Origin: an uncultured Clostridia bacterium | Lineage (GTDB): Bacteria > Bacillota > Clostridia > Oscillospirales > CAG-382 | Direction of reading: 5' to 3' | DNA length: 49,795 bases | NCBI GenBank assembly: GCA_947627335.1 | Contig: CANQVQ010000001.1 | Location: 1 to 49,795, forward strand | In this document: in pieces, positions 311-35,904 of the stretch | Position numbering within the stretch: position 1 is the first letter of the stretch | Layout: the number at the start of each line of letters is the position of its first letter | Program-made: the position numbers and the translations under genes | Notes under the pieces: model-generated | What the model was told of the DNA's origin: nothing | The model's input: only the letters and a program-made list of their open reading frames with translations | Database searches by the model: none

Positions 311-1219
311 TCAACTCTTTTTCCGCAGCAGCAGGAGGATCCCACCGCCGACGGCGATCGCGCCCAGCGCGAACAGGACCGGTACCGGCCACCACAGAAG
401 CCCGGTCTGCGGCGGCGGAACGTCCGACGTGGGCGGCGGCGGTGCGTCGTTGGTATTGGTCACAGTAAAGGTGACGCCCTGCTGTATGATCCCGACCGTG
501 TAATCCTCCGGCACCTGCTTTTCGGTCAGCCGCCACGTGTGCGCCGCCTCCAGATCCTCCCAAGAACACGACCAATTGTTATCGGCACGCAGCACCTCTT
601 CGTCCCACAGGACGCCGTCGCAAAGCAGCTGCACCACGATCTCCGGCGGGCGATCTTCCCCGTCGCCGTCGTTCCTCCAGATCTTCAATGCACGACGCGT
701 GATGGTCATTTCGGAGGTTTCATGCGTATCATACTTCGGTTCAACCACGACGTTGAGGTCGTCCGTCCCGTCCGCCTTGCGGAAGGGAACCGTCACCAGC
801 ATCGGCTGCGGGAACAGCAGGAGGTCGCCCGACTGCACCATTTCCCCGATGACCAAATACAGCCCGGTCTCCAGCCCCGCGAACGTAAGTTCCCCGTTCG
901 CGTCCGTTTTCACGGTGGTCAGCGGTTCGATCCCGTCGCGGTCGGCGTACGCCGCCAACGTGGACGCCAGCGTCTTCCATTCCTCGCTGGACGGGTCGTC
1001 CGGCGTTCGCACGGAATACGAAGAAAAGGGGTCGGCGAGCGCGTAGCCGCTTTCCTTCCACTCCGCCGCTTTATACAGCGCAAACGACGCGTCCGCTACG
1101 GGCTGCTCCTCGTGCCGGAACAGGACCGTGATCGACCCGGTTTCCACCGCAAACACCGGCGTTACCGCGCCAAACAAAAGCAAGACGCATAGCAGCATCG
1201 GATAAATTCGTTTCCTCAT
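311..1219 (-). CDS. Sortase-anchored minor (possibly basal) pilin, CnaB-type
   Basis: 302 aa with a signal peptide (MRKRIYPMLLCVLLLFGAVTPVFA). Has a VVVEPKY pilin-like motif, E-box-like LTEKQVPEDY, and a C-terminal PPQTG + hydrophobic segment + RKKS. Start overlaps the upstream sortase stop (ATGA). Confidence 0.8.
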   Translation of the reverse strand: MRKRIYPMLLCVLLLFGAVTPVFAVETGSITVLFRHEEQPVADASFALYKAAEWKESGYALADPFSSYSVRTPDDPSSEEWKTLASTLAAYADRDGIEPLTTVKTDANGELTFAGLETGLYLVIGEMVQSGDLLLFPQPMLVTVPFRKADGTDDLNVVVEPKYDTHETSEMTITRRALKIWRNDGDGEDRPPEIVVQLLCDGVLWDEEVLRADNNWSCSWEDLEAAHTWRLTEKQVPEDYTVGIIQQGVTFTVTNTNDAPPPPTSDVPPPQTGLLWWPVPVLFALGAIAVGGGILLLLRKKS

Positions 1220-2124
1220 GATCGGAATCCCTCCCCGCGACGGCTTTCACGTGCGGTCTTCTTGTGCTTTCTCTTCCTGTGAACGATGATCACGGTAACG
1301 ACGATCCCGACGAAAAGAACGGTCGGGAGCAGCAGAAACCATCGGTTCCACTTGGAAGTAAACGGTTGTATGACGAGCGGTTGCTCCGGTTCTTCCGCCG
1401 GTGTTGACGGCGTTTCGATCCGGCGACCGGTAACGACCAAACGGTGCGTATTGATCCCATAGGGGGTGCAGGTCATCAGCGTGCAAAGCTCCTGCCCTTC
1501 CTCGATCTTCATGTCCTCGAGTTCTTCCGGCGATACGCGAGCCATGCGCTCCACGCGGTATGTGAGCACCTCGTTGAGGATGTGCAGCACGAACGTGTCG
1601 CCGATCTCGAGCTGATCCAGATCGGTAAACAGGCGGGCGGACGGCAGACCGCTGTGCCCGGTGAGAACGGTGTGAACGCTTTCGCCGGGAAGCGGCAGGC
1701 TGGAGGCTTCCAAATGCCCGACGCCGGTCTGCAGCACGTTTTCGTCCGTGCCGTGATAGATCGCCAAATAAATCTTCGCCTTCGGGACCTCGATATACCC
1801 CATGATGCCGGTCCCGTCAAGGTTCAGCAGACTTTCGTATTTTGCCCATTCCTCGGACGTCAATTCGCCGATGTACGGCTTGGCTTTGAACAACCTGTCG
1901 TTGTACGTCGCAATATCCTGCAGCATCGCCTCGTACGCACCGTTGTCCACAGTCTGCAGCTGCCGTTGGTATTCGCCGATGGCTTTTTTGTTGACGGCGT
2001 CGTTGATCTTATCCGCAACCGTCGGATACAGCACCAAAGCCAACCCCACGAGCAGCGCAAGGACGCCGGCCACCGTGCGAACGATCTCGGACGTTCTTCT
2101 TTTCGGCTTACCGTCCCGTTTCAC
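1216..2124 (-). CDS. Class C (pilus-polymerising) sortase, copy 2
   Basis: TLMTCTPYG catalytic-Cys motif, HLEASSLP and LTGH motifs, N- and C-terminal TM segments. Start placed at GTG 2124: GGGGAG lies 5 nt upstream and the N-terminus aligns with the paralog. The ORF-track ATG at 2181 would overlap the upstream gene by 74 nt. Confidence 0.85.
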   Translation of the reverse strand: MKRDGKPKRRTSEIVRTVAGVLALLVGLALVLYPTVADKINDAVNKKAIGEYQRQLQTVDNGAYEAMLQDIATYNDRLFKAKPYIGELTSEEWAKYESLLNLDGTGIMGYIEVPKAKIYLAIYHGTDENVLQTGVGHLEASSLPLPGESVHTVLTGHSGLPSARLFTDLDQLEIGDTFVLHILNEVLTYRVERMARVSPEELEDMKIEEGQELCTLMTCTPYGINTHRLVVTGRRIETPSTPAEEPEQPLVIQPFTSKWNRWFLLLPTVLFVGIVVTVIIVHRKRKHKKTARESRRGEGFRS

Positions 2125-3001
2125 CGCGGCTCCCCTTTCTGCGCCTCCTGCGCACGACGAGCACCGACACGACGACGACAAGCAGGACCGGCAGCCCGAT
2201 GGCAGCCGCCCAAAGGACCGACGGCATCGGCGCAGGGATCTCCTTGACGGGGTTCGCGGGATCCGGGCGCTCGGCTTCGGGCGTTTCGATCCGAACGCCC
2301 CGCACCAGCAGGCGGTGGGAATTGACGCCGTACGGCGTGCAGGTCATCAGCGTGCAGAGATCCCGTTCCGGGTCGAACGCCTGCTTTTCGGCGTCCTCCG
2401 GCAGCATGACGGCGGTCGATTCCACCCGATAGGTCAAAACCTCGCCGAGGATGTGCAGGAAAAAGGTGTCCCCGACCTCCAACTGGTCGATATTGCTGAA
2501 CAGCTTGGAGGACGGAAGCCCGGTGTGCCCGGACAGGATCGTGTGCGTCCCCGTTCCACCAACCGGCAGAGAGGAACCCTCGATATGCCCGACGCCCGCC
2601 TGCAGGACGCTTTCCTCCGTGCCGTGGTAAACGGGAAGGTAGATCCCCGCCTTTTCGATCTCGATATACCCCATCATGCCCGTGTCAAACGGGTCGAGCA
2701 GGGCGGCATAGCGCTGCCGCCGTTCCGCGTCCAGCCCCCCGATCTGGGAACCGACGTCCGAGAGCGCGTCATTCCACGCGTGCGCGGCTTCCAGCATCGC
2801 CTGCCGTTCGGAATCGTCCAACTGTTGGAGATTTTGCTGATAGTCCACAATATCCTTTCGGTAATTCAGCGAATTGATGTAATCCGCTACGGTCGGATAC
2901 AGCAGCAGGGAAAGTCCAACGAGCAATACGAGCGTGACGAGGATCGCGGAAAGACCGGTATGCGATTTTCGGACCGGCTTCGCATTCGTTTCGCGTTTCA
3001 T
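2108..3001 (-). CDS. Class C (pilus-polymerising) sortase, copy 1
   Basis: 297 aa with the TLMTCTPYG motif, a YPTVADYIN N-terminal anchor region and a C-terminal TM segment plus RRRRRK. Paralog of 1216..2124. Confidence 0.9.
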   Translation of the reverse strand: MKRETNAKPVRKSHTGLSAILVTLVLLVGLSLLLYPTVADYINSLNYRKDIVDYQQNLQQLDDSERQAMLEAAHAWNDALSDVGSQIGGLDAERRQRYAALLDPFDTGMMGYIEIEKAGIYLPVYHGTEESVLQAGVGHIEGSSLPVGGTGTHTILSGHTGLPSSKLFSNIDQLEVGDTFFLHILGEVLTYRVESTAVMLPEDAEKQAFDPERDLCTLMTCTPYGVNSHRLLVRGVRIETPEAERPDPANPVKEIPAPMPSVLWAAAIGLPVLLVVVVSVLVVRRRRRKGSRGETGR

Positions 3002-3082: not shown

Positions 3083-5233
3083 TTATTCGGCTTTCTTGCG
3101 TCTTTTCGCAGCGATCACAAGGTAGGTGACCGCACCGGCGATCAGAACCGCACCGAGAATGTAGAAGATCATCGTGCCGGTACCGCCGGTGAAGGGCAGG
3201 AACGGCGCCTTCTGGTTGATCAGGGTGTCGGGAAGCAGACCGCTCGAGAAGACACCTTTTGCGGCGGTATTCGGAATTTGATCGTTACCGAAATTGTCAT
3301 ACACAATGCCGGGTTTGCCTTCTGCCGAATAGGTGACGCGCACAAGCGCACCGTTTTCGTCGGTTTCCGCCTGAATGACGAACACGAATTCATCCATGGT
3401 GTTGTAGCCATCGGGGGTGATGACCTCCTTAAGGGTATATTTGCCCTCGTCCAGCCCATAGACATCCGGAATTTCACCGGTTTCGCCGGATTCGAGGAGG
3501 TAGGCTTCCAAAGCGGCTTTCGCTTCCTCCAGCGCATTGTAAGCAGTACCGCCCTCTTCGCGATCCGCTTTTTTAGCGTCGTCGAACGCTTCCTTCGCTT
3601 CGTCATACTTGCCGATCAGAACCGTAACCTCTTCAGTGGAGGGATCGCTGGTTTCGCTCGTCCAGCCGGTCAGTCGGCGGATGGAATCGACAACGGCTTC
3701 CACGGTGGTGGTGTCGCTATTGGCTTTCTCTGCGTCTGTTTTCGCCGCTTCAGCCGCTTCTTTCGTTTCATAGAACGTCTGCGTTTTGGTCGTTGTAGAT
3801 TCTGCGCCTTCGGTGACGGTCGTCGTGACGGTCAGAACATACTGATCCTTGAAGATCGCGTAGTTGCCCGCCGCGTTCTTCAGAACGAAGCCCGCACCCG
3901 GCAGACCGTCGTTATCGTCGTCGCCGTCATCCAGCTTGTCGCTTGCCACCTTGACCAGGTCAAGACCAAACGCGTAGACATAGACCTTCTTTTCTTGCGT
4001 CCGACCGGTGCCGTCGTGGTTCGGGTCGTTGGAGAATTCGAGATCCACGGTGTTGGGGTTGCCCGCCACGCCGATGACCGCATTCTCGTTGACCTGCGCA
4101 TAGTAGGTGACGACAAAGATGGAATCCTTGGTCACTGTGATCTCTGCGCCGTCATTTTTCAGCGTTTTCAGATCGGTAAACTTGACTTCCAGGGTGCAGC
4201 CGTCTTCCAGACCATCCTTCACCACACTGTAGTTCGTGCTTTCCAAGACGGTGCCGCCCTTCAGATCGGTATCCGCGTCTGCGGCTGCCTTATTCGCGTA
4301 AACCCGGACGACCAGCGGATGCTCGGCATCCGGTCCGACAAGGGTCAAGCCATTGCTGAGCGTATCGTGGAAGGCATACTTGTAGGTATCAAAATCACCG
4401 TAGTTCTTGGGAAGCGTGCCGGTGAGTTTGAACTGCACATAGTCGCTGACGCCGGCGACGTCGCCTTTGTCGGTATTGGCGCTGTCGACGATGTCCTTGT
4501 CAACGGTCGGCACGGAGGCCTTCAGGTTGATCTCCTGATCGCCGAGAACGGCGAGGATGTATTCCGACGTCGCGTCCTGTTCGTCGGGCTCGGACTTGTC
4601 AGCTTCCACAAACAGATAGTACCCGGCTTTATCAAACGCAAAGGTCAGATAATCGTTTTCGGGATTTTCCTTATCGCTTGTGACTTCGCATTTGCCGTCG
4701 ATCGGCTCAAGACCGCCCTTGTCGGCAACGATCTTTGCAAAGTGCTGCAAGAACGCGTTCGTCTTGTGCGCTTCCAGAACTCTGGCAAGCTCTTCCGCCG
4801 TTCCGACTTCGGCAAAGACATTCGCGCCATCCGCAAATGCCCAGGCATCGGCGTCCGCTGTCAGAGCTTGCAGTTCTTTGAGCAAATCCTCGCTGTGGTC
4901 ATACTTGACGCCGTCTTTCTCGCCCACGACGCTCGCGCCCCATTCGATGTCCGCGAGGGTGTAGTTGTTCCAGTTTTCCGCACCCCATTCGCCGGCGTCA
5001 GACACGTCCCCTTCGGGGATCCCGCCTTCTTTGAACGGCGAACCCGTAAAGAGCTGGTAAACCGTGAACTGGTTTTCCGTCATCGCGGGAAGACCTTCGT
5101 TGTTGTGGATCACAACTTGAAGGTTATCCTGCTCGACCGGCTCCGCAAGAACCGGTACGACGGCGGTCAGCGCAAACAGGACCACAAGCGCAAGCGCAAG
5201 CAGCTTGCCAAATGTCCGATTTGTCGTTTTCAT
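3083..5233 (-). CDS. Backbone (major) pilin, SpaA-like isopeptide-domain protein with LPFTG sorting signal
   Basis: 716 aa with a signal peptide. Has a VVRVYANK pilin-like motif, a GAGFVLKN CnaB start, E-box YTLKEVITPDGY, and C-terminal LPFTGG + TM + KRRKK. GGAGGA RBS 6 nt upstream. Confidence 0.8.
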   Translation of the reverse strand: MKTTNRTFGKLLALALVVLFALTAVVPVLAEPVEQDNLQVVIHNNEGLPAMTENQFTVYQLFTGSPFKEGGIPEGDVSDAGEWGAENWNNYTLADIEWGASVVGEKDGVKYDHSEDLLKELQALTADADAWAFADGANVFAEVGTAEELARVLEAHKTNAFLQHFAKIVADKGGLEPIDGKCEVTSDKENPENDYLTFAFDKAGYYLFVEADKSEPDEQDATSEYILAVLGDQEINLKASVPTVDKDIVDSANTDKGDVAGVSDYVQFKLTGTLPKNYGDFDTYKYAFHDTLSNGLTLVGPDAEHPLVVRVYANKAAADADTDLKGGTVLESTNYSVVKDGLEDGCTLEVKFTDLKTLKNDGAEITVTKDSIFVVTYYAQVNENAVIGVAGNPNTVDLEFSNDPNHDGTGRTQEKKVYVYAFGLDLVKVASDKLDDGDDDNDGLPGAGFVLKNAAGNYAIFKDQYVLTVTTTVTEGAESTTTKTQTFYETKEAAEAAKTDAEKANSDTTTVEAVVDSIRRLTGWTSETSDPSTEEVTVLIGKYDEAKEAFDDAKKADREEGGTAYNALEEAKAALEAYLLESGETGEIPDVYGLDEGKYTLKEVITPDGYNTMDEFVFVIQAETDENGALVRVTYSAEGKPGIVYDNFGNDQIPNTAAKGVFSSGLLPDTLINQKAPFLPFTGGTGTMIFYILGAVLIAGAVTYLVIAAKRRKKAE

Positions 5234-5442: not shown

Positions 5443-8400
5443 TCAGATGACGCGGCGGTTCTTGCGCCGCCCAAACAGGAACAGCACGATCGACAGCCCG
5501 ATCAGCAGTGCGCCGACGAACATGATCTCGCTCGCGCCGACTCCGCCGGTAAAGGGCGGGGCAACGGCTTTTCCGTTGACAAACAGCAGGTAAATATCCA
5601 CAGTATCCGTCGTGACGGTTCCCGAAACGCTGTCGTCCGACAGTTCGAGGTACGAACCGCTCTCGTCGGGGGCGTTGCTCGTGTTGTCCGCGACGTGCTG
5701 GAGGTTGTAGCCGCCTCTGCCGGTCTCCTTCACGGTGTACGCCGTATCCGCCGGGATCCCGCCGATGACGACCTTTTCCCCGTGTTTCAACGTGAAGGTC
5801 GCGGTAAATACGCCGTCCGTTTCCGTCCATGTGACGGTGAGCTTCTCCCCTTCGGCAGCGCCCTTGGCGTATTTTTCGACGGTCAGGTCCTCCGCGGACA
5901 ATTCGGCGCCTTCCGCCGGTTTCAGCGTCACGGAGAATGCAAAGTCCCTCGTTTCCGTGTCGCCGCTGTCGCCGTCAATGCGTTTCTCCACGGTCAGCGT
6001 GCCGTTGAACACCTGGTTGACGTAGTCCGCACGGTTCGGCGAATCGCTCGGCATCATTTCCAGATACGTCGCGGCATTATGAACGATTTCTCCCTCTCGC
6101 GTGAGCCAATCGCCCTCGCTGCTGCCGGGGTGAGCCGGGTCAACGGAAGGATACTTCGGCACCGACGTTTCGACGACCGTATAGTGGGTCCCGGCAGCAA
6201 GTCCGTAGAGCACGGCTCCCTGCTTTGCCTTGAGTTTTACCGTATACGTTCCGTCCTCGTTTGCTTTGAGCGGTTCCAGATACGAACCCGTACCCTCGCC
6301 GGTCGCCGGGAGAATGTAGTTCTGGTATTCGCTCTGCTTCGGCGCGGCAGCCGGCATCGTATGGCTTCCGTCCGACCACTTTGCGCCGCCCGATTGCAGA
6401 TCCATATTGCCCTTCCAAAGGTACAGGGTCCCGGGCTTCACCGGCGCGTCGTCGGGCTGCGTAAAGCTGACCGTAAACGTGAATTCCCGTTCCGGCGGGG
6501 TGTCGATGACGCTTCCGTTCATATCGACCAATTGCTTGGTGATCACGAGCAGATCGGGATCGACGGTGTTGATAAAGTTCGCGGATTCCTCGTAGGTCCC
6601 GGTGTTGCCGAATACCGAGTACACGCCGGTGTATTGCGTGTTGGACTTTGTATCCTGCGCCGACGTTACCGCATCGGCTTGTTCCTCGCCCACGACGCCG
6701 AAGTGGACCGTCGGGCTGACGATGTAGCGACCGATGTTGCGGATATAGCCGGACCCTTCGCCCTCGTAATGCCTATCGACCATCGTTCCTTCGTAGAACA
6801 TATAGTGGCGGACGGTCCCGTCGCTCTGCGGCACATCGCACTTGCCTTCCGCAATCTTGTCAACGGAATCTACGCTCACGCAGCCCGGGTTGTCAAGAAC
6901 ATCGTGTCTCGTCCCGGTGTTTCTGCTTTCTCCCGTTGATTCATCCCAGAGCCAGAAGACGGAGGAGCCATCCGGTACATCCTTCGGCTGGTGATGGTTG
7001 TCGCCCGGGGCATCCTTATTCATGGTGGCGTAGCTCTCCCACAAGACGGCGTTGGTGTGCGCGAACGGCTCTTCCGACTTGACGACGCCTGCTACACCGG
7101 CGCCTTCGACGGAATTTCCGTTTTTGTTCACCGCCCAGAACAACCCTTTTTCGGTCGTGTCGTCCTCATACTCTGTCGGATACTTACCGCCCCCATACTC
7201 GCCGTAGGTCGCTCCGTTTTTGGTATAGACGGGGATGCTCTGCGCGCCGGGGCGGTAGGTGCTGACGGACCCGACCTGCTGCTTGTGGCTCACCTCTTTC
7301 AAGGCGTAACCCGCTTGAAGTTGCTTTTCCGTCAATTTTTCGGTGACGCGATAGATGGCGCCGGAGGGGATCCCGCCGAACAGCAACGCCTGTCCATGCT
7401 TCAGCGTGAATTCCGCCGTGTGCTTCGCGATCTCCTCATTCGTCAAATTGGCGAAATAGTCCGGGCGGTCCCCGGTCGGGAGGATCGGGTCATACAGGTC
7501 ATTTTGGTCGGAGTTTACCACCAGATCCTGACCAACCTTCCCCGAACCATCGTTTTCATTGGCGTTCTTTCCGAATTCCACCTCTTTCGTCCAGTAGGCA
7601 CTGAGGGTGCGGTAGGGCGTTTTGATGGCAAGCTCCGAGGTTTCGGAAATGTTCGGGTTGATGGTCAGCAGTTCAAACTGCTTCGCTTCCCCTTCCTTAT
7701 TTTTATAAAGGGTTCCGCCGTAATCCTCGGCGTTAAAACCTTCCGCCGTAGGATCCGGTCTGTCGCCGGTCTCCGGCACCCATTGTGCAAGATAGGCTTC
7801 TTCGGACACCAGCCAGACCTTCGCGGCAAAGAAAGTGCCTTCCTCTCCCCGGCTCCCGTCTACCGCGACGTCCTCCGTACCGACGGAGCCGACGCCGTCC
7901 TTCATATTCGCATTGTGGTAAACACGGAACGCCGTATCCGCCACGCCGAGGTCGGTCGTGCCCCTGTTTCTGCCGATGAAGACATAATAGATCTTGCCTT
8001 CATACGAATCGCCCGCACTGTGTTTTCCCGCGGTTTCGCCCGTGCATTCTTCGGCATAGGTGTAATTCCCGGACGGGTCGGCGATCAGACGGCAGCCGTC
8101 GGCATCGACCGTGGCTTTTGTACCGTTCGACGTCTGGAGGAACAACTGCGAATCCAGCTCCAAGTCGATATAGTGGAACTGGCGCTGCCAGCTTCCCGCG
8201 CTTTCGTCCCATTGTACCACAATGGCGCTCTGCGTCCCGGTGACGCCGTTGATAAAGACCTGGAAATTGAATTCCTCGTCGGGGTCCACCGTCATACCGT
8301 CGGGCGCTTCGACCATTTTGGTCACCAGCAGCGTGGTATCCATGACATACAACCGACCGTTGTTGCCCAAGTAGACGTTCACCTTGATGTCGGATCGTTC

Positions 8401-11400
8401 AATATTGGAGGTCGAGCTGATGGTCGGCAAATAGTAGTTGTTTGCCGTGCGGGTGACGTTTTGGGCGTAATATCCCCAGTTCAGACTGGTAGCGGACTCG
8501 TCGTCATGGTATCTCTCGGCGATATACGCCTTGATTTGCTTGCTCTCCGCCTCCGTCGAATACGCCCCGCCCTTGTTCTGCACGTTTTGGGCAAGGTTGC
8601 CGACGCGCAGACCGCCGGGCTTGGCGCAAACGACCCACTCGCCGTCGGACAGAGGATTGCTTGGTTTTTCCTCGGGATATTCGTGATTCGACTTGTCGCA
8701 ACCTGCGTAATAGCCGGTATCCGGATCGATGGTCGCACCGATATAGTCCTTCCCACGGCTGCGGTCGCCCGTTTCGGAATAGGACAAATACGGGTAATCC
8801 TGCGTATACTTGCCGCTCATGTCGTGCCAACAGAGCATATCGCCGTTGGTGATGCCTGCGGCCTTATACGCCGAGCCGAACTCGCTGCCCTTACGGGTGA
8901 TGGCGTACTTCGTCCGGGTGGCGCTGCCGTCGGCTTTCAGCTCGTAGTACTCGATCGGCAGGAAGAAATAGTCGTCGGACGAGAACGGGTCGGCTTCCGC
9001 GTCGTCTTCGGGTTTTGCCACGTTGGTGAGGCGATGGGTTTTCAATAGAATAATATCGCCTTCGTTCGCCGTGACGCCTTTCGCATCGAGAGCGTCCCGA
9101 ATCGCCTTTTGACGCTCTTCGGGCGTGCCTTGGGTGTTCGCCGGTTCCAAATCCTGCGCGATCAGATTGCCGCCGAAGGTCGTTGCGTCAAATTTTGCAC
9201 CGCCTTCTTCCTCCCCGAGGTCCTCGCCGATCGAAACCTTCCTCCACTCTCCGCCGTTAAGCACATACGCCGTATTGTAGAGCGGCAACGCCTTTTCAAA
9301 CAGGTAGTAGCGGTTGCTGGTGGCGGGCGAGAACGAGGTCACCGGGTCGCCGTAGGAATAGTCGGTATTGGTGGTGACATAGTCGCCGTAGCGGTTCAGG
9401 GGGTTGTACCAGTTGGAGAAGAATTCCAGATTCCCCTGCGGAACATTTCGTGCGGTCGACGCCGCCGCATTTTTCACCTTGTTTTGCTCGATATACTCCG
9501 GACCGATCGCTCCGGCGATGTTGATTCGGTTGGAATCGTCCAGAGCCTCTTCGCTGACGCCTACGGTGTAGAACACACGCAGCGGGAAGGACGCGAGGTA
9601 GCCCGGGTCAGTCGGGTCCAAGTTGGTCTTGTATGTGAACGTTCCGTCTGCGCTTTGGTTGATGGTGACTGTGCGCAGCGGCAACATATTCGCGGGGATA
9701 TTGATCCAGAGCGCCTCGTCAAAGTTGGCGTCGGTCAAGGTGCCCTCGACGTCGGTATCGCTATAGTCGCCGCTGTCCTCGACCCAGATGCGCAGGTCGG
9801 CGAGCGCGTACACGCCGGGCGTTTTCATATGCGATTGATCGTCCTGATACGTCACGTCGGCGGGAATGTCCTCGTCCGTACCGTAGGCGGGATTCATGTG
9901 AAGAACTTTTCGGTCTTCGTCCTTCATGTCAAGGCGATAGAACGTGTATTCAGTCTTGCGTTCCTTTTCGAGCGCTTTGGAGGGGTCGCGAATCTCGCTC
10001 AGTGTTGGCACGAACTGTGCGGCGGTCTTATAATTGACGCGGAAGACCCAATTTTTGCTCCAAGCGTCCGCGGCGGAACTGCAACCGTCGGGCAAGCCGT
10101 TGTTCGATTTGTCGTCCTGCGACACAAACTCCGCTTTCGCAGTAGGCTCACCTCGATACCACCCTTGCGGCAACGCGGTTTCGCCCTTCTTAAACGCAGT
10201 GTTCCCGGCGTTCTCCATGGCTTCAATATACGCTTCGTTCCACTGGTAGTCGTACACGACGGTTTGGACGATGTCATACTTTTTGCCGAACAGAACCAGG
10301 TTTTTGACGTCCTTCACGTCCATGTATTTGCCCACCGGGTCCGTGTAGGTGACGGAGTTATTCACACCAAAGTCGTTTTTACCGCTTACCGGCGCGAAAA
10401 TGGTCGTGGTGATGGTTTCAAAGATGGAATCGAAAATGTCTTCGATATTGTGGTCGCCAGCCTCAAAATATTCATTTATATAATATAGCTGTTCGAAACT
10501 CGTAATATCGTTGGCGGTATCGCTCGGATGGTTCCAAGTAAAGTTACAATATGACCCGGCAGAATCAACGAATATATATCTTGACCCATCTGCACGCGGG
10601 AACCGCATAGAAGGTGCACTTTTCGCTATATAAGACTTCAGCGCATTTTCCGCGTCGGTTATCTCGCTCATTGCCTTGGCGTCGCCAGCCTTTTCAGCCT
10701 TATGCGCATCGCTGAAATAGGTTCTCGGGTCCATCGTAGACCAGAGCTGTTCCGTGGCGTAATTTCCCAAACCGCCGACATTATACCCGATGGAAAAGCC
10801 TTTCATTTCCTCGTCATAATGCGCTTGAATTTTGTTCTTGTAGTACCCCGCAAGTAATAGGTTGGAGACCGTTCGCGGAGCAATCGCCTGAATTTCAAGA
10901 TTTTTATTCGCGACAGAACCTCTGCCTGAAGCCCCCGACCCTTTACCGGTGCCTTCGTTGCAGTCCGCGTAATATGGATTCAAGCCAGCCCCCGCGTATT
11001 GGGCACCTGTTCCAGCCGAAGGGATAATATCCTGATTGTTTCCACTGCCAAACGGCGCCCACCATTCATAGGAGGTTCTCCCGGAATTTGACGAGGAGGT
11101 CGTGCTGATAATATTCGTTGCGCCGTCCGTCAGGACGATAAGGACGGGCATACGCTTCGCTTCGTCTGCCATGCCCGGATGGTACGTCGTCTCTGTTGCC
11201 GTCGCCAGCATTTCCATGCCTTTGTACAAAGCGCCTTGCAGATAGGTAGAGTCCGCAACCATGGCACCCGTCTTTTTTGTATAACCGCCTTTAACAGACG
11301 TTGAAACGTTGGCAAAGTATGTGTAGTTTCCATTGACGCTATATTTCGTTCCTTCGGTCGCGCTAAAGAAAATCCCATCGTTTCCGCTGGAAGTATAGTG

Positions 11401-12111
11401 ATTCAGCGGGAGGAGAGTCTGTGCGCCGCCGCCGTAAACCACAACGCCGACACGATTTTCCTTGTGAACAGCCGGGTCCTGCGTCTTTACATTTTCGCCG
11501 TCAATACTTTTCGTTTCGCCTTCGTTATTCATCAAACGGGCGATCAGCTGATTCGCCTGCGCAATGACCTGATGCAAAGAGTCGTTGCGAGTTGCGATGG
11601 ACGTATTGCTATTTCCTGTCATTGATCTGGAAATATCCAACAAAAGCACAACGTCCAGCGGACGAGCGTTTTCCGTGTTGACGTTCTGGCTTGAGCCGAG
11701 CGCACTGTAAACGTGCAGGAAGTCGTCGTTCAATTCGATCGTGCCGTTCACGCCGTCAAGAACGTCGCTCAGGGTCAGAACTCTGCCGTTCCAAGACGCT
11801 GCCCTATCGCCGGTATCATTACTGCCATACGCGAACACCGATTTATCCGACCAAAGTCGTCCGGCGACACGGGTGTTCACAGAGAAATCCAACTGCGACT
11901 TGTAGGTGTCCATGGTGCTGGGGTCCGCCTGCCGGGTCACGCCATTCGTAGGACCCGACGTACCGGCGGCAAGCGCACGCATCGAAAACACGTCGCTCAA
12001 GCTGAACAGCATCGGTATCGTCATACACAAACACAGCAGCAGGGAAATCGCCCGGCGACCGCAGCGTCCGAGCTTTTTTCCGCTTCTTTCCGCACTGTGT
12101 AATGCTCTCAT
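5443..12111 (-). CDS. Giant vWA-domain tip adhesin/pilin with PPFTG sorting signal
   Basis: 2222 aa from ATG 12111 (GGAGG 10 nt upstream; the ORF track begins at TTG 12138). Signal peptide, MIDAS motif DVVLLLDISRSMTG (D codon at 11637), several C-terminal CnaB-like modules (YTVVETSVPKY, YTVKETGRGGY), then APPFTGG + TM + RRKNRR. Confidence 0.85.
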   Translation of the reverse strand: MRALHSAERSGKKLGRCGRRAISLLLCLCMTIPMLFSLSDVFSMRALAAGTSGPTNGVTRQADPSTMDTYKSQLDFSVNTRVAGRLWSDKSVFAYGSNDTGDRAASWNGRVLTLSDVLDGVNGTIELNDDFLHVYSALGSSQNVNTENARPLDVVLLLDISRSMTGNSNTSIATRNDSLHQVIAQANQLIARLMNNEGETKSIDGENVKTQDPAVHKENRVGVVVYGGGAQTLLPLNHYTSSGNDGIFFSATEGTKYSVNGNYTYFANVSTSVKGGYTKKTGAMVADSTYLQGALYKGMEMLATATETTYHPGMADEAKRMPVLIVLTDGATNIISTTSSSNSGRTSYEWWAPFGSGNNQDIIPSAGTGAQYAGAGLNPYYADCNEGTGKGSGASGRGSVANKNLEIQAIAPRTVSNLLLAGYYKNKIQAHYDEEMKGFSIGYNVGGLGNYATEQLWSTMDPRTYFSDAHKAEKAGDAKAMSEITDAENALKSYIAKSAPSMRFPRADGSRYIFVDSAGSYCNFTWNHPSDTANDITSFEQLYYINEYFEAGDHNIEDIFDSIFETITTTIFAPVSGKNDFGVNNSVTYTDPVGKYMDVKDVKNLVLFGKKYDIVQTVVYDYQWNEAYIEAMENAGNTAFKKGETALPQGWYRGEPTAKAEFVSQDDKSNNGLPDGCSSAADAWSKNWVFRVNYKTAAQFVPTLSEIRDPSKALEKERKTEYTFYRLDMKDEDRKVLHMNPAYGTDEDIPADVTYQDDQSHMKTPGVYALADLRIWVEDSGDYSDTDVEGTLTDANFDEALWINIPANMLPLRTVTINQSADGTFTYKTNLDPTDPGYLASFPLRVFYTVGVSEEALDDSNRINIAGAIGPEYIEQNKVKNAAASTARNVPQGNLEFFSNWYNPLNRYGDYVTTNTDYSYGDPVTSFSPATSNRYYLFEKALPLYNTAYVLNGGEWRKVSIGEDLGEEEGGAKFDATTFGGNLIAQDLEPANTQGTPEERQKAIRDALDAKGVTANEGDIILLKTHRLTNVAKPEDDAEADPFSSDDYFFLPIEYYELKADGSATRTKYAITRKGSEFGSAYKAAGITNGDMLCWHDMSGKYTQDYPYLSYSETGDRSRGKDYIGATIDPDTGYYAGCDKSNHEYPEEKPSNPLSDGEWVVCAKPGGLRVGNLAQNVQNKGGAYSTEAESKQIKAYIAERYHDDESATSLNWGYYAQNVTRTANNYYLPTISSTSNIERSDIKVNVYLGNNGRLYVMDTTLLVTKMVEAPDGMTVDPDEEFNFQVFINGVTGTQSAIVVQWDESAGSWQRQFHYIDLELDSQLFLQTSNGTKATVDADGCRLIADPSGNYTYAEECTGETAGKHSAGDSYEGKIYYVFIGRNRGTTDLGVADTAFRVYHNANMKDGVGSVGTEDVAVDGSRGEEGTFFAAKVWLVSEEAYLAQWVPETGDRPDPTAEGFNAEDYGGTLYKNKEGEAKQFELLTINPNISETSELAIKTPYRTLSAYWTKEVEFGKNANENDGSGKVGQDLVVNSDQNDLYDPILPTGDRPDYFANLTNEEIAKHTAEFTLKHGQALLFGGIPSGAIYRVTEKLTEKQLQAGYALKEVSHKQQVGSVSTYRPGAQSIPVYTKNGATYGEYGGGKYPTEYEDDTTEKGLFWAVNKNGNSVEGAGVAGVVKSEEPFAHTNAVLWESYATMNKDAPGDNHHQPKDVPDGSSVFWLWDESTGESRNTGTRHDVLDNPGCVSVDSVDKIAEGKCDVPQSDGTVRHYMFYEGTMVDRHYEGEGSGYIRNIGRYIVSPTVHFGVVGEEQADAVTSAQDTKSNTQYTGVYSVFGNTGTYEESANFINTVDPDLLVITKQLVDMNGSVIDTPPEREFTFTVSFTQPDDAPVKPGTLYLWKGNMDLQSGGAKWSDGSHTMPAAAPKQSEYQNYILPATGEGTGSYLEPLKANEDGTYTVKLKAKQGAVLYGLAAGTHYTVVETSVPKYPSVDPAHPGSSEGDWLTREGEIVHNAATYLEMMPSDSPNRADYVNQVFNGTLTVEKRIDGDSGDTETRDFAFSVTLKPAEGAELSAEDLTVEKYAKGAAEGEKLTVTWTETDGVFTATFTLKHGEKVVIGGIPADTAYTVKETGRGGYNLQHVADNTSNAPDESGSYLELSDDSVSGTVTTDTVDIYLLFVNGKAVAPPFTGGVGASEIMFVGALLIGLSIVLFLFGRRKNRRVI

Positions 12112-12146
12112 TTCTATCGTTCCTCCTCGGTGGTTCAAAACGGCTT

Positions 12147-12794
12147 TTATTCGACTAACGCACGGGCAAGCGGTTTCCTTGCCCCGTCGTCAATTTTACG
12201 GTAAAACGTCAGCAGACCCTCCATCATACGGAATCCGCTTTCCGCAGCGGTTCCGTCGTCCGGCGTCCGCCCGCTGCAGACCTGAAACGCGGTCGCCAGC
12301 ATCATGCCCATCACGGAATCCAGCATTCTGGAGACGTTCACGCCCGGATAGAGCGACGAACACTTCTCCGTAAGCGGTTTACAGAGCGCAACGTGCCCCT
12401 GCTTCGCCTGTTCCCCGCAGTACGAGCAATAGTAGTACCGGGCGAGGAACATACAGGTGTCCGGGTGTGCGTTCGTGAACCACAGCCAAACGGAATGCCA
12501 GAAATGGCGCATCCGGTCCTCAAACGGGATGGAAAACTCCCAAAGCACGTCGGAACGCTTCAGCACCTCGTCGATCAGCTTCGCATCCTCCCGCAAAAAG
12601 GTTTGCAGCAGGAGATTCTCCTTATTCCCGAACAGGCGGTAGAGATACACGTCGGTGCCGACGCCGTCCGCCTCCGCGATAATTGCACGCGTGGAGACGT
12701 TTTCCACGCCGTTTCTGGACACGAGACGCACGACCGCGTCCATTAAAGCGGTTTCCGGCGTTGGTTTCACTTTCTGTGTCATTTTTCTCTTCAC
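12147..12794 (-). CDS. TetR/AcrR-family transcriptional regulator, first gene of the pilus operon
   Basis: N-terminal HTH (AVVRLVSRNGVENVSTRAIIAEADGVGTDVYLYRLFGNKENLL). Stop lies 35 nt before the adhesin start with no terminator between them. Start is either GTG 12794 or ATG 12782. Confidence 0.8.
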   Translation of the reverse strand: MKRKMTQKVKPTPETALMDAVVRLVSRNGVENVSTRAIIAEADGVGTDVYLYRLFGNKENLLLQTFLREDAKLIDEVLKRSDVLWEFSIPFEDRMRHFWHSVWLWFTNAHPDTCMFLARYYYCSYCGEQAKQGHVALCKPLTEKCSSLYPGVNVSRMLDSVMGMMLATAFQVCSGRTPDDGTAAESGFRMMEGLLTFYRKIDDGARKPLARALVE

Positions 12795-12831: not shown

Positions 12832-12845
12832 ATGGCGTTCGCCAT
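12832..12845 (-). promoter_or_regulatory. Candidate operator palindrome in the pilus-operon leader
   Basis: ATGGCG-TT-CGCCAT inverted repeat between the predicted TSS (about 12870) and the tetR start. Could equally be a leader hairpin. Confidence 0.25.
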
Positions 12846-12876: not shown

Positions 12877-12905
12877 ATTATAGCACGTTCGTCTGCGTTT
12901 TGCAA
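12877..12905 (-). promoter_or_regulatory. Promoter of the tetR-pilus operon
   Basis: Minus strand reads TTGCAA-17 nt-TATAAT with a TGc extended -10. An AT-rich UP-like tract lies at 12906-12949. Confidence 0.7.
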
Positions 12906-12949
12906 GAGGTTTTCGCGAAAAAATGCAAAATTTTTTTGGAAATTTTTTC

Positions 12950-12966
12950 GGGGGGGGGGGGGGGGG
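12950..12966. repeat. Homopolymeric G17 (C17 on the pilus-operon strand) tract
   Basis: Counted directly: G at 12950 through 12966. Lies 45 nt upstream of the -35 hexamer of the pilus promoter. Confidence 0.95.
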
Positions 12967-13148
12967 ACGGGTGCCTTTTTCCGTGCTGTGGAGCCATTTT
13001 TTGCCGTTCGGAAAAACGGTTTTTTCCGCCGTCCGCCGTCCTGCCGTGCCGTCCGTTTTGCAGGGCGTCGACGGGGCGCGGGTCGTCCGCCGCAGGCGGT
13101 CGGTTTTTGCAAATTATGGCAGTCGCCATATGAAGATATTTTTAGGAG

Positions 13149-13186
13149 GAAAAAACGACGGGGCAATGAAAATTTGCTCCGTCGTT
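13149..13186 (-). terminator. Intrinsic terminator (minus orientation) between the octamer array and the pilus promoter
   Basis: 13-bp stem AACGACGGGGCAA/TTGCTCCGTCGTT (one G:U pair), 7-nt loop; on the minus strand it is followed by a U-run (plus-strand A-run 13150-13155, the last two A pairing in the stem). Confidence 0.65.
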
Positions 13187-13236: not shown

Positions 13237-13406
13237 AATGATGTATCGCCTACGGCGAAATGATGTACCGCCTTTGACGGTATGATGTTGCTCCCTTGCG
13301 GTCGCAATGATGCGCTGTTTGCCCCATGTGCCGCAGGCACACATCATTGCCGCAGGCAACATCATTAGCGAAGCGTCATCATTTGCCCGACAGGGCAAAC
13401 ATCATT
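13237..13406. repeat. Mirrored array of 8 octamers: 4x AATGATGT then 4x ACATCATT, each separated by short palindromes
   Basis: Octamers at 13237, 13259, 13281 (7/8), 13307 (7/8) | 13341, 13359, 13376 (7/8), 13399. Spacing is 17-26 bp. Symmetry centre is the palindrome GTGCCGCAGGCAC at 13328-13340. A partial second copy is at 13-62. Confidence 0.85.
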
Positions 13407-13444
13407 GAAAAAGGCGGTTGCTTTCGCAATCGCCTTTTTCTTGG
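13377..13444 (-). repeat. 68-bp repeat element, copy 2, immediately 3' of tRNA-Ser(GCT)
   Basis: 67/68 identity with 33..100. Contains the terminator hairpin and two ACATCATT units. Confidence 0.9.
13408..13439 (-). terminator. Intrinsic terminator after the tRNA-Ser pair
   Basis: Stem GGCGGTTGC/GCAATCGCC with flanking A5/T5 runs. Homolog of the hairpin at 64..95. Confidence 0.75.
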
Positions 13445-13531
13445 CGCGGAAGGAGAGATTTGAACTCTCGCGCCGGTTACCCGACCTACACCCTTAGCAG
13501 GGGCGCCTCTTCACCACTTGAGTACTTCCGC
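13442..13531 (-). tRNA. tRNA-Ser (anticodon GCT), type II with long variable arm, CCA encoded
   Basis: The 90-nt reverse complement has acceptor GCGGAAG/CTTCCGC, anticodon loop CTGCTAA, a long variable arm, T-arm GAGAG-TTCAAAT-CTCTC, and 3' GCCA. Confidence 0.9.
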
Positions 13532-13557
13532 ACGGTGAATTGATTTTTTTGAAAGAA

Positions 13558-13644
13558 TGGCGGAGGGAAAGGGATTCGAACCCTTGTGGGTTGCCCCAAA
13601 CGGTTTTCAAGACCGCCTCGTTATGACCACTTCGATATCCCTCC
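13558..13644 (-). tRNA. tRNA-Ser (anticodon TGA), type II, CCA encoded
   Basis: The 87-nt reverse complement has acceptor GGAGGGA/TCCCTCC, anticodon loop CTTGAAA, a variable arm, T-arm AAGGG-TTCGAAT-CCCTT, and 3' GCCA. Confidence 0.9.
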
Positions 13645-13730: not shown

Positions 13731-13780
13731 GAGGAAAATGAGATTTTCTCCGTTTCCTTTGAAAAAATGTGCTTCCCCTC

Positions 13781-13809
13781 TTGCAATTCGGATGAAATTA
13801 TGGTATACT
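13781..13809 (+). promoter_or_regulatory. dnaA promoter
   Basis: TTGCAA-17 nt-TATACT with a TGg extended -10. It lies inside the ORF-track extension, which supports ATG 13849 as the true start. Confidence 0.7.
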
Positions 13810-13848
13810 GTTATGAACAAATCTGACAATGGGGGTGTATCCGACTCG

Positions 13849-15192
13849 ATGGACTCTTTTTCCGAATTGAAATCTTTTCTCCTGGAGGAACTTCGCAAGG
13901 ACTGCCCGCCGACGAGTATTACCCTCTGGTTTGAACCGATGGAGGTCCTGAAGGTCACCGGGACGGAGATCACGCTGCAGTTCCCGGATTCGCGTCTGCC
14001 GTTTGTGGAGACGCATTACGCCGATCTGCTGTGCGACGCCGTGGAAAAAGTGGTCGGTGCGCGCATGGAGCTGCGCTTTGTCCCCGAATCCGCCCGGGAG
14101 GAGACCCCGGAAGCGGAATCCCCCGTTCCCGCGGAAGCGGAGCCGGTCGTGCAGAAGTCGAGTGCGTTTACCGAGCGTTTCAGCCCGGCGTACACGTTTG
14201 AGTCGTTCATCGTCGGCAAATCCAACGAGCTTGCGCAGATGGCGGCGCTCGCGGTCGCGGAAACGCCGTTTACCCTGCACAATCCGCTCTATCTGTACGG
14301 GCAGAGCGGTCTGGGGAAGACGCACCTGCTTTTCGCCATCATCAACCGCCTGCGGGCGACCAACCCGGAATATCGGATCCTCTATGTGACCGGCGAAGAA
14401 TTCACCAACGAGCTGACCGAAGCGCTCGCGCAGAAGTCCCCGGTGGCGTTCCGGGAGAAATACCGCAATCTCGACGTCCTGCTGGTGGACGATATTCAGT
14501 TCATCTCCGGAAAAATGGCGATCCAGCAGGAATTCTTCCATACATTTGAAGCGTTGTTCCAGAAACGCAAGCAGTTGATCATCACGTCCGACGTTTCGCC
14601 GGACCGCATCAACAAGCTCGAGGACAGGCTGCAAAGCCGGTTCGCTATGGGGCTCGTCGCGGACATCCAGCCGCCGGACCTCGAACTTCGCACGGCGATC
14701 TGCCGCCGCAAGGCGTTGGATTACCAGTTCGATTTGGGGTACGACGTCCTGACCTACCTCGCCGAGCACATCACCAAGAACGTCCGCCTTATCGACGGCG
14801 CCATCAAAAAATTACGGGCGTACTGCCTGCTCAACGGCGGAAAATGCACGGTCACGACGGCGGAACGCGTCCTGCAGGAATTTTTCCGCTCCAAAGAGGA
14901 CGAGGACAACCTCGTCGAGAAGATCTTTGACTACACCTGCAGGAAATTCGTGGTTTCCAAGGAGGACCTCGTCGGTCCCCGCCGGACCGCGAATATCGCC
15001 TTTGCCCGGCATTTCGCCATCTACCTCGTGCGGAAAAAGACCTCGCTGACCATCAAGCAGATCGCCGAGCTGTTCAACCGCAAGGACCACACCAGCGTCC
15101 TCAATTCCATCAACGTCATCGAGCGGCGCATCCGCACGGATTCCATCTTTGCGCGAGACCTCGCGATCGTGCTGGACGAGCTGACCGTCTGA
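13849..15192 (+). CDS. dnaA: Chromosomal replication initiator DnaA
   Basis: 447 aa from ATG 13849 (GGGGG RBS). Walker A GQSGLGKTHLL, AAA+ box LLVDDIQF, and a C-terminal DNA-binding helix region (ARHFAIYLVRK...DHTSV). Confidence 0.95.
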   Translation: MDSFSELKSFLLEELRKDCPPTSITLWFEPMEVLKVTGTEITLQFPDSRLPFVETHYADLLCDAVEKVVGARMELRFVPESAREETPEAESPVPAEAEPVVQKSSAFTERFSPAYTFESFIVGKSNELAQMAALAVAETPFTLHNPLYLYGQSGLGKTHLLFAIINRLRATNPEYRILYVTGEEFTNELTEALAQKSPVAFREKYRNLDVLLVDDIQFISGKMAIQQEFFHTFEALFQKRKQLIITSDVSPDRINKLEDRLQSRFAMGLVADIQPPDLELRTAICRRKALDYQFDLGYDVLTYLAEHITKNVRLIDGAIKKLRAYCLLNGGKCTVTTAERVLQEFFRSKEDEDNLVEKIFDYTCRKFVVSKEDLVGPRRTANIAFARHFAIYLVRKKTSLTIKQIAELFNRKDHTSVLNSINVIERRIRTDSIFARDLAIVLDELTV

Positions 15193-15298: not shown

Positions 15299-15470
15299 TG
15301 TGGACAAAAACGGGAAAGCTGTGGAAAACTCCCCCGGTTTTCCCGCGGGACGGGAATCGGTTGTCCACACCGAAAAGCAAGGCGGGACAAGTGGTTCGAG
15401 GGGTTTTCCACAAAATCCGCCCGCCTACTACTACGACTACTACTTCCATATACCTAAAAGGTTTCTTCGT
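15299..15470. other. oriC core: DnaA boxes, GC cluster, DnaA-trios, AT-richer unwinding stretch
   Basis: Boxes: TGTGGACAA 15299-15307, TGTGGAAAA 15320-15328, TTGTCCACA 15361-15369, TTTTCCACA 15404-15412, each 1 mismatch from TTATCCACA. GC cluster CCGCCCGCC 15417-15425. CTA CTA CTA CGA CTA CTA CTT at 15425-15445, then CCATATACCTAAAAGG. Confidence 0.75.
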
Positions 15471-33978: not shown

Positions 33979-35904
33979 ATGAAAACAATGAGCAAAAAAC
34001 AGCGGAAGATGCTGGTTCGCATCCTCGTCGCGGGGGGGATATTCCTGCCGCTGCTGGCGCTGGAGATCACCGGCGTCAGCGAGGCGTGGCCGTGGTATAT
34101 CGCGCTTCCGGTCCATGTGGTCCCGTACCTGATCGTCGGGTATGACGTGCTTCGGAAAGCGGTGCGGAATATCTGTCACGGGCAGGTATTCGACGAGAAC
34201 TTCCTGATGTGCCTCGCGACGGTGGGCGCGATCGCCGTACAGGAGTACCCGGAAGCGGTCGAAGTCATGCTGCTCTTCCAGATCGGCGAGCTTTTGCAGG
34301 GCGTCGCCGTCGGCAAGAGCCGTCGTTCGGTCAGCGACCTGATGGACATTCGCCCGGACTACGCGAACGTGGAGCGGAACGGCGAATTGCAGAAAGCGGA
34401 CCCGGGTGACGTGCAGGTCGGGGAGATCATTCTTGTCAAGCCGGGCGAGAAGATCCCGCTCGACGGCGTCGTGGTCGAAGGGACCAGCAACCTCGACACG
34501 GCCACGCTGACCGGGGAATCCCTGCCGCGTCCGGTCTCGGCGGGGGACGAATTGATCTCCGGCTGCGTCAACATGAACGGTGCGCTCCGGGCACGCGTGA
34601 CCAAGCCGTACGGCGAATCGACGGTCGCACGGATCCTGGACCTGGTGGAGAACGCTTCCTCCGCGAAGGCGAAGAGCGAGGGGTTCATCACCCGGTTTGC
34701 GCGGTACTATACCCCGGCGGTGGTGGTGCTTGCGGTCCTGCTGGCGGTGGTCCCGCCGCTGTTTCTGGGGGATTGGTCGACGTGGGTGCGGCTCGCGCTG
34801 ACCTGCCTTGTGGTCTCCTGCCCGTGCGCGCTCGTGATCTCGGTGCCGCTGACCTTTTTCGCCGGCATCGGCGGGGCGGCACGCAAGGGGATCCTCGTCA
34901 AGGGCGCGAACTGGCTGGAAGAGCTTGCCAAGGTGCAGACGGTCGTGTTCGACAAGACCGGCACGCTGACGAGCGGTCGGTTCACGGTCACGGTCGTCCA
35001 CCCGGACCATATGTCCGAACAGGAACTGCTCTCCCTCGCCGCGACGGCGGAATGCTACTCCGATCACCCGATCTCCCTCTCGCTCAAGCAGGCGTATAAG
35101 AAGGAGATCGACCGCACGCGGGTGTCCTCCGTCGAGGAACTCGCCGGGCGGGGCGTCTGCGCGGTCATCGACGGGAAACGGGTGCTGGTCGGCAACGAAC
35201 GGCTCATGGAGGAGCAGTCCGTCACGCGGACGCCCTGCTGTCACGGACAGCATCGCGGTACGCTGGTGCACGTCGCGGTGGAGGGCGTATATGCCGGACA
35301 CGTCGAGATCTGCGACGAACTCAAGCCGGACGCGGTGGACACGATCCGCCTGCTGCGTCCGCGCAGGACCGTCCTGCTGACCGGCGACCACGCGACGGTC
35401 GGGGAGGAAGTCGCCGCCCGGCTCGGCGTCGACGAGGTGCATTGCGATCTGCTGCCGGCGGATAAGGTCGCCCGCGTGGAGGAACTGCTGCGGCAGAAGA
35501 GCGCGTCCTCTTCGCTTGCGTTCGTCGGCGACGGCATCAACGACGCGCCCGTGCTGTCCCGTGCGGACGTCGGGATCGCGATGGGGGCGCTCGGTTCGGA
35601 CGCCGCGATCGAAGCGGCGGACGTCGTGCTGATGGACGACAGACCGTCGAAGGTCGCGACCGCGATCCGCGCTTCCCGCCGGACCCTGCGCATCGTGCGG
35701 GAGAACGTGGTGTTCTCGCTCGCCATCAAGATCGGCGTTCTCGCCGCGGAGGTCGTCATGACCATCGTCGGGCTCGAAAGCAATATGACGCTCGCGGCGT
35801 TCGCCGACGTGGGCGTGCTGGTGCTGGCCGTCCTGAACGCGACGCGTGCGCTGCGGGTCAAACCGGCGGAAAACCTCCGCGAAAGGAAGGAAAAAACGGC
35901 GTGA
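33979..35904 (+). CDS. Heavy-metal (Zn/Cd-type, P1B) translocating P-type ATPase
   Basis: 641 aa. CPC in SCPCALVISVP, DKTGTLT phosphorylation site, TGD, GDGINDAP hinge. No fused N-terminal HMA domain. Confidence 0.92.
   Translation: MKTMSKKQRKMLVRILVAGGIFLPLLALEITGVSEAWPWYIALPVHVVPYLIVGYDVLRKAVRNICHGQVFDENFLMCLATVGAIAVQEYPEAVEVMLLFQIGELLQGVAVGKSRRSVSDLMDIRPDYANVERNGELQKADPGDVQVGEIILVKPGEKIPLDGVVVEGTSNLDTATLTGESLPRPVSAGDELISGCVNMNGALRARVTKPYGESTVARILDLVENASSAKAKSEGFITRFARYYTPAVVVLAVLLAVVPPLFLGDWSTWVRLALTCLVVSCPCALVISVPLTFFAGIGGAARKGILVKGANWLEELAKVQTVVFDKTGTLTSGRFTVTVVHPDHMSEQELLSLAATAECYSDHPISLSLKQAYKKEIDRTRVSSVEELAGRGVCAVIDGKRVLVGNERLMEEQSVTRTPCCHGQHRGTLVHVAVEGVYAGHVEICDELKPDAVDTIRLLRPRRTVLLTGDHATVGEEVAARLGVDEVHCDLLPADKVARVEELLRQKSASSSLAFVGDGINDAPVLSRADVGIAMGALGSDAAIEAADVVLMDDRPSKVATAIRASRRTLRIVRENVVFSLAIKIGVLAAEVVMTIVGLESNMTLAAFADVGVLVLAVLNATRALRVKPAENLRERKEKTA

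Follow-up and report, generated by a model that had tools for sequence, protein, structure and literature searches.

A 17-nt poly-G tract near the promoter of a sortase-pilus operon in an uncultured Clostridia bacterium: possible distal modulator of repression or functionless bystander

Could a long run of G residues next to the promoter of a pilus operon tune the expression of that operon in an uncultured gut bacterium, or is the run without function? The run is a G17 homopolymer (C17 on the operon strand) at 12950..12966 of the window, by which we mean the whole 49.8-kb stretch of DNA analysed here, contig C1 of the source genome. This genome is MAG-like (1.70 Mb, 61% GC, 173 contigs, 82% complete). 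Homopolymer tracts of such length are hypermutable and drive ON/OFF or volume-control switching of surface structures in many bacteria. An initial annotation of the window had described a tetR-adhesin-pilin-sortase operon behind the promoter, and the Pfam domains of its products (TetR_N, VWA/DUF7601, GramPos_pilinBB, two sortases and Cna_B) bear this out. The operon lies on the minus strand and starts with a gene for a TetR-family regulator (12147..12794, with a conserved GTG start at 12794). It continues with the genes for a 2231-aa vWA/DUF7601 tip adhesin that carries a PPFTGG sorting signal (5443..12138), a backbone pilin (GramPos_pilinBB, SpaA; 3083..5233), two sortases (2108..3001 and 1216..2181) and a minor pilin (Cna_B, GramPos_pilinD1; 311..1219). 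On the other side of the control region lies dnaA (13738-15192, plus strand), followed by dnaN. The DNA between dnaA and the pilus control region is taken up by a pair of tRNA-Ser genes (13442-13644, minus strand) together with a hairpin repeat that has multiple copies (13238-13447), and a hairpin with a T-run (13148..13186, minus strand) closes this tRNA/repeat unit and marks the upstream limit of the control region. The hairpin element 3' of tRNA-Ser (4+4 ATGATG/CATCAT) is a dispersed repeat with 84-94% identity between copies, which were found at 13238-13447 and 1-100 of the window and on contigs C105, C4, C87, C38 and C14; its similarity to Rfam Gut-1 is weak and below threshold (29 bits vs. 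a gathering score of 50).

Inspection of the window sequence confirmed the 17 unbroken G residues, a length that rests on one short-read assembly and could be off by one or two bases. We performed a homopolymer census of the whole genome. G runs of 5, 6, 7 and 8 nt were found 1047, 178, 13 and 1 times, respectively, and extrapolation of this ∼6- to 13-fold drop per extra base gives an expectation for G17 of <<1e-6 per genome. Just ten G/C runs of at least 9 nt are present genome-wide, all of them intergenic; G17 is the longest of these and also the longest homopolymer of the genome. The census detected no other G/C run of at least 9 nt on contig C1, operon genes included. Since MutS and MutL are both encoded in the source genome, a general mutator state does not explain the pure 17-mer. 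A G run of this length has a high slippage frequency. From this established behavior of G runs we infer that G17 is hypermutable, and that the cell population is very probably mixed in G17 length.

Promoter scanning gave one intergenic sigma70-like site upstream of the operon, TTGCAA-17-TATAAT, in agreement with the earlier claim of a single recognisable promoter. This promoter (12877..12905, minus strand) is conserved in all related modules. It consists of a -35 hexamer TTGCAA at 12905-12900 (-35 to -30), a 17-nt spacer and a -10 hexamer TATAAT at 12882-12877 with a TG upstream (extended -10), where the positions assume a predicted transcription start at ∼12870. G17 falls at about -96..-80 relative to this presumed start. 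Between the tract and the -35 hexamer lies a region rich in A/T-tracts (12906..12949, minus strand; -79 to -36) that is partly conserved in relatives; its description as an AT-rich separator agrees with a measured AT content of 73%. The adjacency of tract and promoter also holds, but the gap counted is 44 nt rather than 45. The tract thus falls in neither the -35/-10 spacer nor the usual UP-element zone, and promoter scans detected no -35/-10 hexamers flanking it on either strand, so a core promoter around G17 was rejected. G17 lies outside the core promoter and so has no way to work as a classical ON/OFF switch of spacer length. An ON/OFF outcome of the phase switch proposed in the initial annotation is unlikely; a graded effect on expression is possible. 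Several other roles were considered and rejected. An oriC element does not fit, as the DnaA boxes cluster at 15299-15412 in the dnaA-dnaN spacer and none lies near the tract. A search for known RNA families gave no Rfam match at G17. Leader-peptide attenuation through a poly-proline ORF across C17 was dismissed, since the ORF lacks a ribosome-binding site and lies upstream of the promoter and after a terminator.

Two palindromes flank the tract. O1 (ATGGCGAACGCCAT, 12832..12845, +26..+39) is located in the leader and is a conserved putative TetR operator, and O2 (ATGGCGACTGCCAT, 13116..13129, -259..-246), with the conserved TTTGCAAAAA adjacent to it, is a putative distal operator. The two are identical at 12 of 14 positions and both are kept in related modules; the DNA between them is not. 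O1 and O2 are candidate operators that the operon's own TetR would probably bind. O2 is the sole candidate upstream element that we found for an effect of tract length. It had been claimed that length changes in G17 would alter the phasing or distance of an upstream site relative to the promoter. One part of this claim stands, in that a conserved upstream cis-element exists and its distance to the promoter would vary with the tract. The phasing part fares less well: the O1-O2 spacing is 284 bp here vs. 257 bp in L020 and 256 bp in L015, a difference of 27-28 bp, and helical phase is therefore not conserved between the lineages. On the plus strand, reading of the sequences by eye places O2 in a TTGCAA-16-TATGAA frame (G074 has TATATT instead of TATGAA) that resembles a divergent promoter with no gene downstream; O2 may be a relic of such a promoter.

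To compare the control region among relatives, we aligned related modules from ENA contigs L015 and L018 and from contig C29 of G074 (L020 and L073 are this same contig). TetR homologues with 81-83% identity come with the same control region as that of the window: the promoter, the leader element CCGATTCATCAGTAAACTTGC, O1, the tetR GTG start and O2 with TTTGCAAAAA are all kept. The GC-rich DNA from O2 to the AT-rich tract is not conserved. A comparison of tract length among related genomes had been suggested as a check on the switch, and it went against it, as the orthologous modules at this level of TetR identity lack the tract altogether. C17 aligns to ordinary CGCGCCCGTGCCGTATG in G074 and L015 and to CCGGCTG in L017. 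Because relatives carry ordinary GC-rich sequence at its position, G17 is lineage-specific and was probably expanded recently out of a C-rich patch. There is direct, if small, evidence of slippage-type differences within the control region: between the near-identical L015 (2330-2345) and L020 (1150-1165)/L018, the A-tract immediately before -35 differs in length (A6 vs. A7), and this one base accounts for the difference in O1-O2 spacing between L015 and L020. The module itself was found in different surroundings. In the sister species it follows closely on a gene for a large serine recombinase (G074:C29, L073:1-783), in L015 it is preceded by a sortase gene, and a 52% paralogue on another contig of G074 (C6, L026:850-1345) has a tyrosine recombinase gene upstream. 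Such varied upstream neighbors suggest a mobile tetR-pilus module.

Further searches for the same site gave no other assembly that spans the tract. Exact-protein look-ups with TetR (two start codons) and DnaA returned no further assembly of the site, patterns built on the flanks, with a variable gap, and on the conserved leader had no match in JGI metagenomes, a search with the spurious ORF crossing G17 had no match, and the sister MAG was the sole return of a genome-contig scan. The contig with a 96%-identical TetR begins 47 nt upstream of tetR, short of the tract. Contigs with a 94%-identical DnaA break at the tRNA/repeat, 200–400 nt upstream of dnaA, and a relative at 89% has no pilus island at the dnaA-side locus.

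Poly-G tracts were also found elsewhere in the genome. Four of the ten G/C runs of at least 9 nt are located in the -35/-10 spacers of lipoprotein genes. Five tandem YD-repeat lipoprotein genes on contig C25 (8950-13700, L064) come with three extended -10 promoters that carry poly-G in the spacer, TTGACG-t-G9-tactgtgg-TATAAT (spacer of 18), TTGACG-t-G11-tacagtgc-TATAAT (spacer of 20) and TTGACA-gt-G10-atactatgc-TATAAT (spacer of 21). A further lipoprotein gene, at the end where contig C59 is broken (10487-10553), has G12-TGC-TATACT ahead of it. Judged by their sequence, the C25 and C59 lipoprotein promoters are of the canonical phase-variable design. The orthologous lipoprotein promoter of another species (G075) has G10 at the same place, and the tract is thus kept at a different length, which indicates that the lineage retains poly-G in regulatory DNA. 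Tracts outside promoters are tolerated as well, since a G9 on C30 (9174-9182) follows the stop codon of a MATE-like gene and precedes the terminator of that gene. An XRE-like gene on C2 has a run (35007-35015) 6 nt ahead of its ATG, which would be, or overlap, its ribosome-binding site. The ENA assembly L065, which is independent and of low coverage, is 100% identical to the source genome over 1.1 kb; 57 nt are missing from it (L065:238-413 vs. L064:1-233) in a terminator-like region upstream of the first lipoprotein promoter.

Similar arrangements exist in the genus. In G020 (C4:290-4200, L062), a promoter with G12 in its spacer, TTGACA-attttc-G12-tg-TATAAT, precedes a tetR-like gene, a gene for an S26 (SipW-like) signal peptidase and three more genes whose function is unknown; this locus may be another surface-fibre operon that is led by a TetR gene and has poly-G in its promoter. 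In G004 (C2:80655-80670; L033, L063), a G16 run abuts the -35 of TTGACA-17-TACAAT, at the UP-element position, and the promoter precedes the gene for a 235-aa secreted protein with no Pfam domain. Runs of at least 11 G were found in 15 of 61 genus genomes, many of them at contig ends; poly-G/C runs of 11–18 nt lie within 0–70 nt of contig ends in L032, L034, L036, L038, L039, L041, L054 and L074. A 17-nt tract on contig C13 of G042 was considered as a parallel and set aside as uninformative, as it is 10 nt from the contig end. Assemblies tend to break at poly-G tracts, and further phase-variable loci may be hidden in this way. Poly-G promoter spacers are recurrent in the lineage, and the G17 of the window is the atypical one.

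Our leading account, which we hold tentatively, is that G17 is real, hypermutable, recently expanded and distal, and that it at most modulates expression through the spacing of the putative TetR operators, in the manner of the nadA promoter. Slippage at replication would add or remove G:C pairs in G17, and the distance and helical phase of O2 relative to the promoter and O1 would change. With both palindromes presumably bound by the operon's own TetR, the outcome would be graded, heritable and reversible cell-to-cell differences in repression of the pilus operon. In Neisseria meningitidis nadA, a TAAA repeat occupies -85..-55 with a NadR operator on either side (-139..-119 and -15..+7), and the repeat number tunes repression and gives graded expression (Metruccio et al., 2009; PMC2791445). 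The tract studied here resembles this distal-tract class in that it is a repeat upstream of the -35 of an adhesin operon and within ∼100 nt of the predicted start (-96..-80 here vs. -85..-55 in nadA). Distal and promoter-proximal sites for a small-molecule-type repressor flank the nadA repeat; here the two conserved palindromes flank the tract and, if they are operators, tract length would likewise shift their spacing. The differences are that the nadA repeat is a tetranucleotide and the one here a mononucleotide run, that the MarR-family repressor of nadA is encoded elsewhere whereas TetR is encoded in the operon, and that the nadA operators are ∼130 bp apart with IHF between them, compared to 284 bp for the putative operators here. 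The nadA host is Gram-negative. To our knowledge, long-range looping is not known for TetR-family dimers. G17 could be a new case of a distal-tract SSR-modulated promoter, and we know of none described in this group.

Other known systems fit less well. In the core-promoter homopolymer switches of N. meningitidis porA/opc/fetA and Mycoplasma hyorhinis vlp, the tract sets the -35/-10 spacer length. These share with the window a homopolymer in the promoter DNA of surface proteins, and the exact design is found on C25 and C59. With 17 units, G17 has the repeat length of about eight or more units typical of this class, but it does not lie within or overlap the -35 to -10 region; it is located 44 nt upstream of -35. 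The poly-T of Helicobacter pylori sabA and the poly-C of Bordetella pertussis fim, at or upstream of -35, tune expression through the alignment of upstream contacts or of an activator site. Those tracts abut or overlap -35, whereas 44 nt of AT-rich DNA intervene here and no activator is known. In Bifidobacterium breve UCC2003, slippage between G11 and G12 switches sortase pili and gives piliated and non-piliated subpopulations (Penno et al., 2022; PMC9187656). This too is a gut commensal Gram-positive with poly-G at the start of a sortase-dependent pilus cluster; there, however, the first pilin gene itself carries the tract, and slippage shifts the reading frame. The tract here is intergenic, ∼170 nt upstream of the start codon of the first gene, and does not belong to the intragenic class of G-tract pilus switches (Bifidobacterium type).

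A graded, repressor-dependent dimmer is the best functional reading of G17, and any effect on transcription would be of this kind. It is supported by the place of the tract between O1 and O2, upstream of an adhesin/pilus operon that is a typical target class, and by the retention of poly-G in regulatory DNA of the lineage, including the four lipoprotein spacer tracts of this genome. Against it stand the lack of the tract in relatives, the O1-O2 phase that is not kept, the tolerated non-promoter G9 and the possible relic nature of O2. The stronger proposal that G17 is a selected contingency tract, in which slippage resets the spacing of distal and proximal TetR operators and gives stochastic pilus repression, is doubtful.

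Because neither the tract nor the operator phase is conserved, a functionless bystander comes close behind the dimmer, and we regard it as a plausible though somewhat less favored explanation. A real and slippage-prone tract would have arisen from a C-rich stretch in an unconstrained spacer and would vary in length with no measurable effect on pilus expression. Consistent with this, the tract lies in the least conserved segment, opposite ordinary GC-rich sequence in relatives and outside both the core promoter and the UP zone, the spacing of the putative operators drifts, and the G9 between stop codon and terminator is a tract with no promoter role. However, neutral persistence of a pure 17-nt run is unexpected in a genome with MutS and MutL, where runs longer than 8 nt are otherwise almost absent, and its place beside an adhesin operon, with a conserved palindrome on either side, is suggestive.

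That the tract is an artefact, missing from the organism's DNA or of very different length there, is improbable. In its favor, the source is a fragmented short-read MAG of 173 contigs, many long poly-G runs of the genus lie within 10–70 nt of contig ends, and the quality of Illumina reads falls after G-tracts, the "G's end" effect (PMC9187656). Against this, G17 is internal, 12.9 kb into the 49.8-kb contig, and three other assemblies contain a contiguous homologous region with which both of its flanks are collinear. This continuity in relatives means that the tract is not a chimeric join; it is neither at a read or contig end nor a junction of unrelated flanks. We also reason that reads of the form flank-G(n)-flank cannot come from poly-G tails. 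In addition, the G9 and G11 tracts of the source genome recur exactly in the independent ENA assembly L065. We take the tract as real.

A purely structural element, in which a G-quadruplex or an i-motif on the C strand forms, or rigid poly(dG).poly(dC) blocks wrapping of upstream DNA, and length variation is irrelevant, has a very low probability. The tract does abut phased A/T tracts upstream of the promoter, and a run of at least 15 G can in principle fold as an intramolecular quadruplex. Folding as single-strand DNA, a calculation that leaves G4 out of account, gave no signal (z = -0.66), conservation is lacking, and there is no precedent in this group. Still less credible is a classical core-promoter ON/OFF switch, with the tract as -35/-10 spacer of a promoter on either strand: the same design is present elsewhere in the source genome and the genus, but G17 lacks flanking hexamers on both strands and the conserved promoter is 44 nt away. 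Equally remote is an invertible promoter with G17 as an incidental feature, in which O1 and O2, each with its TTGCAAA flank, would serve as the arms of an imperfect inverted repeat around the promoter (I1: arms of 21 nt with 76% complementarity and a separation of 260 nt), because the arms are short, imperfect and themselves palindromic, no resolvase-family gene was found in the 82% complete genome and no tyrosine recombinase on contig C1, and all four assemblies (window, L015, L018 and L020) show one orientation; the pilus promoter does not have the features of the fimS/Clostridioides cwpV class. An 11-nt perfect inverted repeat (12843-12853/12915-12925) that brackets the core promoter was dismissed, as it is not conserved in relatives.

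Even as a bystander, G17 would be a hypermutable site and a practical hazard in assembling and comparing such genomes. If instead G17 tunes the operon, the distal-repeat dimmer would extend from a meningococcal adhesin to the sortase pilus of an uncultured gut commensal. If it is a selected contingency tract, clonal cells of gut Clostridia would differ in a heritable and still ligand-inducible level of pili, and this would be nadA-type distal spacing in a Gram-positive, the first with a TetR regulator and a sortase pilus. A tuning role of G17, taken with the poly-G switches of the lipoprotein genes, would hint that non-pathogenic gut Clostridia run a wider programme in which surface structures vary stochastically.
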